DNA of 61,634 nucleotides from contig JAHILZ010000016.1 in assembly GCA_018896765.1 (NCBI GenBank), forward strand, positions 1 through 61,634, in the 5' to 3' direction. The position numbers were made by a program, and so were the translations under genes. This DNA comes from Patescibacteria group bacterium (GTDB lineage Bacteria; Patescibacteriota; Minisyncoccia; JAHIHE01). This document shows positions 56,664 to 59,051 of the stretch, one piece after another. Under the pieces are notes generated by a model that was given only the letters and a program-made list of their open reading frames with translations, was not told the origin of the DNA and made no database searches. Position 1 is the first letter of the stretch. Every line of letters begins with the position of its first letter.

Positions 56664-56881
56664 TTTACCTTGTTAAATAATCCCGAATTTTCGGGATTCC
56701 GGCTTTACCGGATTTAACAGGGTCAATCTCGAAGTTATAAAGTTATAAAGTTTATTTGCATACCTCGACTTCTTCTCCGATTTTCTCTTTTAAGTATTCT
56801 TTTACTTCATTTATTCCGCCGATAATGACATAATTTTGAGTTAATTTAATTGAAATTTAAAATTATTTCCGCTAGCCGTTT

Positions 56882-58003
56882 TCATACTGATTTTAGATAT
56901 TTTTTAGTTTCCCGATCAAAATCAGACTGATAAATTTTATCTTGTATCGGACGATATTTCTCAAATTCACTTTCCGCAAAAGTTTTGGCGATTTCCGCCG
57001 TTACTTTTCCGTGATTTTGCAAAATATTCTCTTCATTAAACTTCAAAAAAACATTTAATTTTTCAGCCCAATCTTTCATAGTCATTGGAATTCCTTTTTC
57101 CGCCTGATGCTCCGCGTAGTCTAAATACATAGTCACTATGCGATTAAGCGCTTTTATTTCTTTTTGATTAAGATAATTTTTGGCGATAGAAACATCGGAT
57201 TTTAAAATCTTGCCTTCCGTCGCTTTTTTCCATGTAGTAAGCCCCATATTTTCTTTTTGATAACCGGCTCTTTTTATAATGACCTCAGCCGCAGTATTGC
57301 CATGAATGGCATAATGAAGTTTATTTTGCACAGTTGCAAAAAATGTTTTTGTGGTCAAAGAATTCAAATCATAATCCATTGCTGTCGCATAAATATCGGT
57401 TATTTGTTGATAAAAATTTCTTTCACTTTCGCGAATATCGCGAATTTCAAGGATTAAGTCTTTGAAATATTGCTTGCTCAAATAAGCTCCGTTTTTTAAC
57501 CTCACATCATCAAGAACATATCCGCGAATAGCATAATCTTTCAAAACTTGTGTCGCCCAGCGCCTAAAATCTGTCGCTCTCTCTGAATTTATCCTATAAC
57601 CAAGAGAAATGATAACTTCCAGATTATAGTGATTTGTATTATAGTTTTTTCCGTCTTTGGCAGTTATTAGGAAATTCCTAATAACTGAATTTTCATCTAA
57701 TTCTCCGCTATTAAAAATATTTTTTAAGTGTTCATTGATGGTTGGAATTTTTACATCAAAAAGTTTAGCAATGAATTTCTGCGTCAGCCAAACATTTTCA
57801 TCCGCCACCCTCACTTCAATTCCATCTTCTCCCGCTTGAGAAGTGAAAATAAGAAATTCCGCCGTGCTATTGCGAATCATTAAACTTTTTGTTTTTTGAT
57901 TATCCGGTATTTTTTCCATTTGCTTAATTTTAGCGTCGCAAGACTGGCAAAATTCATCGTTCTGTTCCAATTTTTTCCCGCATTTGTTGCAAAAAGTATT
58001 CAT
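56882..58003 (-). CDS. RhuM-family protein with N-terminal zinc ribbon
   Basis: FCNKCGKKL...FCQSCDAK ribbon, then a RhuM core (VWLTQKFIAKLFDV, INEHLKNIF, LGYRINSERATDFRRWATQVLKDY). Confidence 0.75.
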   Translation of the reverse strand: MNTFCNKCGKKLEQNDEFCQSCDAKIKQMEKIPDNQKTKSLMIRNSTAEFLIFTSQAGEDGIEVRVADENVWLTQKFIAKLFDVKIPTINEHLKNIFNSGELDENSVIRNFLITAKDGKNYNTNHYNLEVIISLGYRINSERATDFRRWATQVLKDYAIRGYVLDDVRLKNGAYLSKQYFKDLILEIRDIRESERNFYQQITDIYATAMDYDLNSLTTKTFFATVQNKLHYAIHGNTAAEVIIKRAGYQKENMGLTTWKKATEGKILKSDVSIAKNYLNQKEIKALNRIVTMYLDYAEHQAEKGIPMTMKDWAEKLNVFLKFNEENILQNHGKVTAEIAKTFAESEFEKYRPIQDKIYQSDFDRETKKYLKSV

Positions 58004-58079
58004 GGGTTTTAATTTAATTTAATTGAAATTTTTTTATTAATTGCTTTCATACTGATTTTTAAATATTTTTGACTTACTC

Positions 58080-58107
58080 TTGACAACACCCTAAATTGGA
58101 GTATAAT
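58080..58107 (+). promoter_or_regulatory. near-consensus sigma70-type promoter for candidate sRNA
   Basis: TTGACA, a 16-nt spacer, then TATAAT. Confidence 0.55.
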
Positions 58108-58113
58108 TTAATT

Positions 58114-58228
58114 AAGAATAAGTCCTTAGGGTAAAGCTTGGGCGAGGGCACTCTTTCCGGAGTATTCCAATGACCTCAAGATAAATCCCAAAAGGCATCT
58201 ATCTTGTCCGCTAATTGAGCGGATTTTT
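58114..58228 (+). ncRNA. candidate ~115-nt sRNA, convergent with and overlapping the DUF3800 gene 3' end
   Basis: The 5' end is set by the promoter above (approximate). Internal hairpins are actct/ggagt and caagata/tatcttg. The terminator is tccgc-taattga-gcgga followed by ttttt. Only a 4-codon ORF lies inside. Confidence 0.35.
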
Positions 58229-58846
58229 GATTTGTATTGTTTTGATTTTCAGTTTTTCTAAAACCTCATTTTTTTGTCCGACATACTGCTTGTAGAAAGT
58301 ATTTGATATAAAATCGGCTACCTCAAGAAGAATATTTGAACTGGAAGGAAGAATATCGAACTGAAAAAATGTATTAGGAAAACGAGATTTTAGATAAGCC
58401 AATATATTTTCCCGAAATTGGCTTTTGCCTAAAATTCCATTTTTATGCTTTCTGCTGTCAATACTGATAACAACTTTTTTATATTCTTGCAAATTAAGCC
58501 GATTCAAAAGAGCTTTCAGGATATCCTCGTAGATTGCTTCGAAATTTAATTTTCCCTTCTTGAAATATAGACTGTTTTTATCCACAGGAATTTCTTGTAT
58601 GACTTGGAAAACTGTCAAAAGATTGGATTCAGGAGAATTATAAAGCAAATTCAAGGCTTTTTCGCGTAACAAATCAAATCTTCTATCGGTCGCGTGAATT
58701 CTTGCTTTGCTTACAAATTCACAACGATATGTTTTCCACCGCTTCCAAATCCTTTTTATGGCTGTTGTCTCAAAACCATTGATACTGACAAATTGCAGTT
58801 TTGTTCTGTCTTTTAAATTGTATGATTCATCAAGAAAAATATACAT
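58211..58846 (-). CDS. DUF3800-like protein
   Basis: N-terminal YIFLDES and C-terminal LLEVADFISN match the two conserved acidic blocks of DUF3800 as I recall them. Confidence 0.5.
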   Translation of the reverse strand: MYIFLDESYNLKDRTKLQFVSINGFETTAIKRIWKRWKTYRCEFVSKARIHATDRRFDLLREKALNLLYNSPESNLLTVFQVIQEIPVDKNSLYFKKGKLNFEAIYEDILKALLNRLNLQEYKKVVISIDSRKHKNGILGKSQFRENILAYLKSRFPNTFFQFDILPSSSNILLEVADFISNTFYKQYVGQKNEVLEKLKIKTIQIKNPLN

Positions 58847-58970
58847 AAAAATTCATTAGTTTTCCATTTTTAGACATAGTTTCCGTTTGGTCAATTTTCG
58901 CCCCGCAAGACTGGCAAAATTCATCGTTCTGTTCCAATTTTTTCCCGCATTTGTTGCAAAAAGTATTCAT
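58830..58970 (-). CDS. 46-aa zinc-ribbon ORF, duplicate of the RhuM gene 5' module
   Basis: MNTFCNKCGKKLEQNDEFCQSCGAK... The first 67 nt plus 6 nt upstream are identical to 57937-58009. It overlaps the DUF3800 start in another frame. Confidence 0.4.
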   Translation of the reverse strand: MNTFCNKCGKKLEQNDEFCQSCGAKIDQTETMSKNGKLMNFYVYFS

Positions 58971-59051
58971 GGGTTTGGATTAGTTTTTTTAGAATTTCCC
59001 GAGAACCGTTCTCGGGAAATTTTTATTTATTCCTAAAATGTCAATTCTGTA

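Follow-up and report, generated by a model that had tools for sequence, protein, structure and literature searches.

Duplicated stubs of a zinc-ribbon gene precede two accessory modules, RhuM and a DUF3800/structured RNA cassette, at a variable locus of a Patescibacteria contig

Contig JAHILZ010000016.1 of a Patescibacteria group bacterium (assembly GCA_018896765.1), analysed here from position 1 to position 61,634 (the window), carries two adjacent minus-strand units in which the same short zinc-ribbon coding segment stands in front of unrelated genes, one encoding a RhuM protein and the other a DUF3800 protein. A reading of the window made from its letters alone (the sequence-only reading) had taken this as cassette replacement within a fixed frame. 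Our analysis favors a different explanation, which we consider fairly probable: the two ribbons are duplicated stubs of a host gene lying before two mobile accessory modules, and the locus is a hotspot at which accessory genes turn over, with no device dedicated to cassette exchange. The DUF3800 module includes, besides the protein gene, a gene for a structured small RNA (sRNA), which is absent from the sequence-only reading.

Followed along the minus strand, from high to low coordinates, the locus comprises an IS630 remnant (itself on the plus strand), a zinc-ribbon open reading frame (ORF), the DUF3800 gene and an ORF in which ribbon and RhuM are fused. The parts of the two units are the following.

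58904..58976, minus strand: first copy of a 73-nt identical core, made of 6 nt of upstream sequence, the ATG and 22 ribbon codons (sequence reading and exact pattern match).
57937..58009, minus strand: second copy of the 73-nt core (sequence reading and exact pattern match).
58830..58970, minus strand: 46-aa ORF, consisting of codons 1-42 of a zinc-ribbon/transmembrane (TM) gene and 4 out-of-frame codons into DUF3800 (67% identity to residues 1-45 of protein P0328).
58075..58863, minus strand: DUF3800 and sRNA cassette, its bounds set by DNA similarity to copies in unrelated contexts (loci L004, L005 and L093).
58211..58846, minus strand: DUF3800 protein of 211 aa with a predicted RNase HII-like fold (Pfam; structure model with pLDDT 91.6; 1eke_B).
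58080..58107, plus strand: sigma-70-type promoter of the sRNA, TTGACA-N16-TATAAT, 12/12 (-35 box conservation).
58110..58239, plus strand: structured sRNA with three nested helices and a terminator (58206-58224) that overlaps the DUF3800 stop codon (covariance model, 125.8 bits).
58010..58075, minus strand: frame-broken relic of the RhuM 3' end (...KSV and stop) with a copy of the 3' flank, abutting the second ribbon copy (repeat alignment).
56882..58003, minus strand: ribbon::RhuM ORF of 373 aa, in which ribbon codons 1-28 are in frame with a 345-aa RhuM having its own Met at 57919.
56834..56905, minus strand: RhuM 3' end and 3' flank, reference copy (repeat alignment).

Sequence, ORFs and profile matches all agree with the order proposed by the sequence-only reading (3' flank, RhuM, ribbon, 3' flank, DUF3800, ribbon), whose factual statements hold with one correction. 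The two cores are indeed identical at 73/73 positions, and past them similarity continues in degenerate form (93.8% over 97 nt by blastn; 81% over 149 nt in the repeat alignment). The 3' flank recurs as described (56834-56905 versus 58007-58075, blastn E 2.6e-8), with a Smith-Waterman score of 35, where the runner-up anywhere in the window, either strand considered, reaches 23, and the second copy does contain the frame-broken RhuM C-terminus. The cargo genes are unrelated, RhuM matching PF13310 (E 2e-106) and DUF3800 matching PF12686 (24.6 bits; cut-off 21). The correction concerns the ribbon that goes with DUF3800: it adjoins the gene on its 5' side, as had been said, but as the separate, out-of-frame 46-aa ORF and not as an N-terminal domain of the DUF3800 protein.

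The origin of the ribbons became apparent from an exhaustive HMMER search with the 46-aa ORF. Most of the matches were generic multi-ribbon proteins; the one specific relative, P0328, is a 92-aa protein with the same ribbon and the same linker (...IEQSETVSNKEKPVNFY...), followed by transmembrane helices. Its residues 1-45 align with 58970-58836 (67% identity, tblastn E 3e-18), so that the 46-aa ORF represents codons 1-42 of a small zinc-ribbon membrane-protein gene, and its residues 1-37 align with 58003-57893, the N-terminus of the RhuM-fused copy. By these alignments, both ribbons are shown to be duplicated 5' stubs of one predicted host zinc-ribbon/TM gene, about 92 aa long when intact. Stub 1 is cut at ...AAT TTT TAT/G, exactly at the ATG of DUF3800; stub 2 consists of codons 1-28, fused in frame to the Met of RhuM. 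Since codons 29-42 are authentic in copy 1 and lacking in copy 2, copy 1 did not derive from copy 2. The Zn_Ribbon_1 profile (PF13240) matches the 46-aa ORF with 34.6 bits, above its cut-off of 25, and the RhuM-fused copy with 20.4 bits, below it.

Several other readings of this region were considered and rejected. The tail of the 46-aa ORF (MSKNGKLM) resembles RhuM N-termini and might have been a RhuM 5' relic; P0328 shows that it corresponds to ribbon-TM codons 29-42. The ORF overlaps DUF3800 by 17 nt in another frame, to which we attach no special meaning, as any upstream ORF in that frame stops at TGATGA within the conserved LDES codons. A candidate third ribbon relic downstream of RhuM scored 11 against a shuffle mean of 11.5 and is not significant. 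A word-indexed protein search with the ribbon yielded one extra protein only, P0002.

Comparison with related contigs brings in three further features that frame the locus.

58991..59023, no strand assigned: hairpin within the native sequence upstream of ribbon copy 1, found also 5' of the single ribbon in L002.
59050..59736, plus strand: IS630-family remnant (DDE_3) that has perfect inverted repeats of 20 nt and, compared with L002, an internal deletion.
56280..56663, plus strand: Sunset-domain (ArfC-like) gene, the other boundary of the variable locus, whose stop codon is abutted by the DUF3800/RNA cassette in L094.

Between the ribbon stub and the sunset gene, this one locus occurs in three haplotypes, with RhuM only, with DUF3800/RNA only, or with both. 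The first is seen in L002 (GCA_043805065.1), which is 99.5% identical to the window over RhuM and its surroundings and reads, in order, full IS630, copy-1 upstream region with the hairpin, a single ribbon, copy-2 tail and RhuM. Such a structure is the exact product of a crossover inside the 73-nt repeat that removes a 967-nt unit. The second haplotype is that of L094 (Logan SRR22387818), 91.5% identical over 58976-58076. Its ribbon forms a mini-ORF of 29 aa, after which come two stop codons; the junction between stub and cassette is the same as in the window, with T4 instead of T5 before the ATG (TTTT/TTTTT-ATG), and the cassette runs straight into the stop codon of the sunset gene (window 56664-56535, 84.6%), without RhuM and without the 3' flank. 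The sunset gene and its downstream region are confirmed by L097 and L098, the former reaching the RhuM 3' end. Relatives of the window are therefore not limited to tandem RhuM paralogues; behind the same ribbon leader they have alternative cargo, as the sequence-only reading anticipated: RhuM alone (L002), DUF3800 alone (L094) or both (window). The stub/DUF3800 junction is common to lineages about 9-15% apart, while window and L002 differ by 0.5%, and the simplest interpretation is that L002 lost the unit recently by recombination between the repeats. Alternatively, the unit may have been gained in the lineage of the window.

The identity of the two cores is itself informative. Exact searching with a 72-nt pattern of the module gave two matches (57938-58009 and 58905-58976) where shuffles expect 0, and the bases bordering the 73-nt repeat differ on both sides (57936 t versus 58903 c; 58010 t versus 58977 g). 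The repeat is made of the 6 upstream nucleotides (AAACCC), the ATG (at 58003 and 58970, minus strand) and 22 codons of a CxxC...CxxC ribbon. Orthologous cores, those of window and L094, differ at 7/73 positions, and the paralogous tails directly after the core are about 70-75% identical (diverged by about 25-30%); the two cores of the window are identical throughout, synonymous sites included. We estimate the chance of 73 straight identities at ~0.904^73 = ~6e-4 if the ortholog rate applies and at 0.72^73 = ~4e-11 if the tail rate applies. Being unexpected at either divergence, the identity points to recent homogenisation at the DNA level and not to protein selection, and we infer that it represents a recent gene-conversion or crossover tract between otherwise diverged stubs. 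Its left edge (-6) falls at the novel joint between flank copy and ribbon, where homology ends.

Neither cargo normally carries a ribbon. RhuM matches PF13310 over residues 106-356 (355 bits; cut-off 33.7) as well as the PADLOC defence candidate PDC-S05 (E 1e-149). RhuM has been described as a predicted toxin in restriction-modification (R-M) loci (PMC3710099), and on these two grounds the window protein is a putative toxin-type defence protein. A homologue search scored 8000 proteins, and what we say of them rests on the best 120 of the 8000: they are 77-99% identical and 336-361 aa long, contain PF13310 only, come from many phyla, begin at window Met29 (57919), and in no case have an N-terminal ribbon. 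The NCBI annotation also starts RhuM at M29. With 28 extra in-frame ribbon codons, the 373-aa ORF of the window departs from the canonical ribbonless architecture of about 340 aa. DNA similarity between the window and L006, an R-M/defence island with a 91%-identical RhuM, is confined to 57919-56891, the first of these positions being the canonical ATG. The metagenome-assembled genomes (MAGs) of the listed homologues are labelled Patescibacteria, Proteobacteria, Omnitrophica, Bacteroidetes, Dehalococcoidia, Melioribacteraceae and Gracilibacteria; the unusually strong sequence conservation of RhuM across such labels implies a wide horizontal spread. The 27-aa ORF fragment downstream of RhuM (NYVIIGG...) has no Pfam match. 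Elsewhere, RhuM genes lie beside DUF3800/RNA modules in L040 (856-1361, fragmented) and L091 (1058-2011, intact, 49% identical), both without a ribbon.

The DUF3800 protein has an N-terminal DE motif in which D6 and E7 are invariant. The best match of its structure model in the PDB is RNase HII (1eke_B, E 7e-5), and the modelled fold appears RNase HII-like; among PDB sequences, neither DUF3800 nor RhuM has a relative. Our search found 262 homologues, the best 120 of which are mostly 209-223 aa long (range 187-250) and stand-alone, none having a zinc-ribbon Pfam domain; none was found in viral contigs. We compared 86 DUF3800 loci, mostly from Patescibacteria MAGs and a few from Armatimonadota and Gammaproteobacteria. 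They delimit a cassette of about 790 nt, made of DUF3800 and, in convergent orientation, a structured sRNA about 120 nt long. DNA similarity between the window and L004, L005 and L093 extends from the ATG through the -35 box of the sRNA and no further. Similarity begins within 30 nt (<=30 nt) of the ATG in 205/237 locus pairs, and it ends at the RNA promoter. The cassette follows a NERD gene in L004 and a Pyr_excise gene in L005, and its neighbours in other loci include genes for a glycosyltransferase, a SecA C-terminus, FtsW, PepA, a Mur ligase and TraG, that is, unrelated housekeeping or defence genes. Sharp bounds and varied neighbours argue for a discrete cassette that has landed in many places. 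When the ribbon peptide was used as tblastn query, no ribbon was detected in the 86 DUF3800 loci or in L004-L006.

Taken with the haplotypes, these observations lead us to envision the following scheme. The stubs would supply promoter and translation start to captured cargo, RhuM making use of the in-frame fusion and DUF3800 of read-through or coupling. Homologous recombination between the 73-nt direct repeats would delete the 967-nt DUF3800 unit and so generate presence or absence of cargo at the strain level.

A number of points weigh against this interpretation. Promoter capture is a step that we infer from the sequence. Either insertion or deletion may underlie the order of events, in which the RhuM 3' relic and flank preceding stub 2 have no fixed place. 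Furthermore, the tandem form is found in one genome only, represented by the window and by the identical contig L001, which are probably assemblies of the same data. This restriction, and the fact that both single forms exist in other samples, would fit an assembly artefact, in which ribbon-DUF3800 and ribbon-RhuM strain variants were joined through their shared 73-mer. We regard this as extremely improbable: the joint that leads from the cassette through the RhuM relic and flank to AAACCC-ATG-ribbon is unique sequence and must exist in the reads, and the k141 names of L083 and L084, contigs that apparently belong to the same series of accessions, suggest that the assembly k-mer was 141 and so exceeded the 73-nt repeat in length.

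The last point concerns the pattern of substitutions in the stub. For ribbon codons 1-22, window 57937-58003 was compared with L094 10-76 and L003 621-686. The differences from L094 are synonymous in 6/7 cases (P ~0.009 under a transitions-only model), and those from L003 amount to 7 synonymous versus 3 non-synonymous codon changes. Such a bias would mean that the stub peptide is still selected, or that gene conversion by an intact paralogue at another place in the genome keeps renewing it; selection on the peptide, suggested by these codon comparisons, may be at work and is not predicted by a pure relic model. The same bias is what one would expect if the ribbon were a functional module, serving as N-terminal domain of RhuM and as a small partner of DUF3800 in the role of a shared sensor, targeting element or regulator. 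The ribbon is in frame with RhuM in both window and L002, and in the 46-aa ORF the Zn_Ribbon_1 match lies above cut-off. However, the ribbon is absent from the best 120 of 8000 RhuM homologues, from the best 120 of 262 DUF3800 homologues, from the 86 loci and from L004-L006; DUF3800 is out of frame with it; NCBI starts RhuM after it, at M29; and the post-ribbon linker has decayed to stop codons in L094. Structure prediction, which the sequence-only reading had suggested as a check of a common targeting or sensor module, was uninformative, the ribbon-RhuM model having a pLDDT of 42.5. We therefore find this proposal unlikely.

The idea of cassette replacement in a fixed frame fares similarly. 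What stands is that alternative cargo is found behind one leader. The frame itself is weakened by truncation of the two stubs after unlike codons, 42 in one and 28 in the other, and by L094, where there is no 3' flank. Scanning of the ORFs between 54965 and 61634, the end of the window, revealed no recombinase, the IS630 DDE_3 remnant being the only mobile-element gene there, and the flanks have no attC-like fold (folding versus shuffles, z -0.9 to +0.9). One could still imagine an exchange without recombinase, the ribbon leader and the 3' flank forming a fixed frame within which defence cargo is swapped by homologous recombination. In its favor are the three haplotypes, in which one leader precedes different cargo, the conservation of ribbon codons mostly at the amino-acid level, and a repeat that is demonstrably recombinogenic, as seen in L002. 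Yet only two cargo types were found; besides the unequal cuts and the missing flank, DUF3800 is out of frame; elsewhere its cassette adjoins many unrelated genes and no ribbon; and a degenerate DNA pattern of the ribbon gave 0 matches in genome, metagenome and viral contig collections, although that pattern would miss L094 (S21F). Cassette exchange thus seems to us distinctly improbable. A bolder variant would make the ribbon stub a selected, portable 5' adaptor (promoter, start codon and Zn-binding leader) behind which strains swap defence cargo by homologous recombination, with DUF3800 and its sRNA forming an undescribed RNA-dependent nuclease module; we give it a slender chance. Duplicated host-gene stubs in front of two mobile modules remain our preferred explanation.

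The sRNA gene of the DUF3800 cassette has its promoter and terminator 3' of the protein gene, on the opposite strand. In the copies from unrelated contexts (L004, L005), this stretch is better conserved than the DUF3800 ORF. A search with nhmmer, using the window sequence, found the sRNA in nearly all of the 86 DUF3800 loci, always directly convergent to the gene. An alignment of 62 sequences reveals three nested helices with compensatory changes at 15/21 base pairs. In this alignment 98.2% of cells are paired, versus 84.7% in shuffles (the observed value is attained in 0/500) and 33-66% after sliding of the partners; this covariation shows the predicted secondary structure to be real. The -35 box is present in 65/67 distinct copies with 97% pairwise identity, compared with 38% for the spacer, and its retention while the spacer diverges indicates that the sRNA is independently transcribed. 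With the covariance model, the window contains no copy other than the one at 125.8 bits. The 3' arm of the terminator and the U-tract (58206-58232 / 58211-58225) encode, on the opposite strand, the invariant C-terminal K-N-P-L of DUF3800, a dual constraint that is conserved across the family. Complementarity of the sRNA to the 5' regions of DUF3800, ribbon and RhuM does not exceed that of shuffles. Two sRNA copies occur in L011/L012 (3108-3271, 4242-4401), L022 and L029-L031, as tandem DUF3800/RNA modules or as back-to-back RNAs.

Eleven RNA motifs associated with DUF3800 genes (DUF3800-I to -XI), of unknown function, have been described (Weinberg et al. 2017, PMC5737381). The sRNA is of the same kind, being conserved, structured and consistently adjacent to DUF3800 genes. 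No Rfam 15 family matched it at E <= 10, whether 4 kb or 201 nt of the window was searched. The Rfam DUF3800 families (e.g. RF02969 for DUF3800-I, RF02961 for -II, RF02968 for -IX) were not found at gathering score in 17 loci, except for a DUF3800-II elsewhere in L038. That RNA (4203-4272, minus strand, 68.9 bits) lies about 1 kb from the new sRNA; its detection indicates that the Rfam models do work on such material, and L038 demonstrates that two different DUF3800-type RNAs can coexist in one locus. A weak Rfam match to Trp_leader reflects the terminator only and was discarded. The sRNA is thus apparently uncatalogued, the comparison having been made through Rfam 15 only, so that it may equal one of the Weinberg motifs absent from Rfam (e.g. 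-XI).

The locus belongs to a 5.5-kb islet bounded by 145-nt inverted repeats that are 99.3% identical (56121-56265 and 61491-61634). The islet contains the sunset gene, RhuM, DUF3800/RNA, the IS630 remnant, and genes for a Cas4-like PD-(D/E)XK protein and an Smr protein. NCBI contig L001 is exactly this segment, and window and L002 both end in the repeat. L097, 99.2% identical over 56039-56965, has different left-hand genes (L27, methyltransferase). The 5.5-kb segment may be invertible or rearranging. Compared with the full copy of L002 (797-1900; helix-turn-helix and DDE_3), the IS630 copy of the window has an internal deletion of about 470 nt; beyond the insertion sequence, L002 1-796 is unrelated to the window, so that synteny breaks at this element. 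The Cas4-like gene (59820-60965, minus strand), with a weak match to a Mu Gam/TOTE-conflict-system domain, adjoins the Smr-domain gene (61100-61411, plus strand); the two are further conflict-type genes of the islet. Elsewhere in the window are a short tandem repeat (27387-27479, 57 nt, 98%) and a dispersed repeat of about 100 nt (6386-6487 versus 21492-21593, 80% identity).

These properties invite comparison with several known systems. The DUF3800-associated motifs of Weinberg et al. (2017) are likewise structured RNAs beside DUF3800 genes, in either orientation, often with an intrinsic terminator. The sRNA described here, in contrast, lacks an Rfam 15 match (E <= 10), is tied to a mostly patescibacterial DUF3800 subfamily of about 211 aa, and overlaps the stop codon. 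DUF3800 proteins are RNase-H-like, occur with non-coding RNAs, and are found in type VII retrons and in a Cas12a2 branch (PMC7736814, PMC10910872). With type VII retrons (reverse transcriptase plus DUF3800; Mestre et al. 2020, PMC7736814), the cassette shares an RNase-H2-like DUF3800, a non-coding RNA and the character of a defence-type module, and the best structural match is 1EKE in that case also. Differences are that inspection of the loci, short of a systematic search, brought no neighbouring reverse transcriptase to light, and that the RNA has its own promoter and terminator and, by eye, no obvious msr/msd-like organisation. With low confidence, we propose that DUF3800 is a nuclease which its sRNA binds or regulates, the pair acting either as a toxin-antitoxin-like or as an RNA-dependent defence module. 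Type I toxin-antitoxin pairs such as Bacillus subtilis txpA/RatA involve a convergent antisense RNA overlapping the toxin gene at the 3' end. Here too, protein gene and sRNA are convergent with overlapping 3' ends. However, in place of a small membrane peptide there is a 211-aa nuclease-like enzyme; the two genes share only about 25 nt; and the structured RNA core shows more conservation than a simple antisense function would call for.

As for the ribbons, deletion or duplication through direct repeats and gene conversion between paralogous segments belong to general bacterial genetics. The window conforms to this scheme: a perfect 73-nt repeat flanks a 967-nt unit that a 99.5%-identical strain lacks, the crossover lying within the repeat, and the identity tract ends abruptly where homology ends. 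There is no difference in principle; the unusual element is that the repeat is a coding stub before two different mobile cargoes. Orphan cassettes of Rhs/CdiA and the cassettes of integrons also offer alternative cargo behind a short conserved sequence that can serve as recombination point, and to this extent resemble the present locus. Unlike these systems, it has no cassette array, no in-frame motif common to all cargo and no identified immunity genes; the ORFs scanned, those between 54965 and the end of the window, include no integrase, and a fold resembling attC was not found.

By itself, the ribbon repeat is a case of ordinary genome plasticity, yet a clean example resolved to the base. 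It suggests how Patescibacteria, with their tiny genomes, would capture promoter-less genes for accessory functions or defence behind the 5' stub of a host gene, with a 73-nt repeat toggling the presence of these genes between 99.5%-identical strains. The DUF3800/sRNA cassette is the more useful and the more interesting outcome. To our knowledge, no functional hypothesis for DUF3800-RNA pairs has been put forward since 2017. A compact, sharply delimited module of an RNase-HII-like protein and an RNA, found in >80 loci, would offer a tractable system in which to test what such pairs do.

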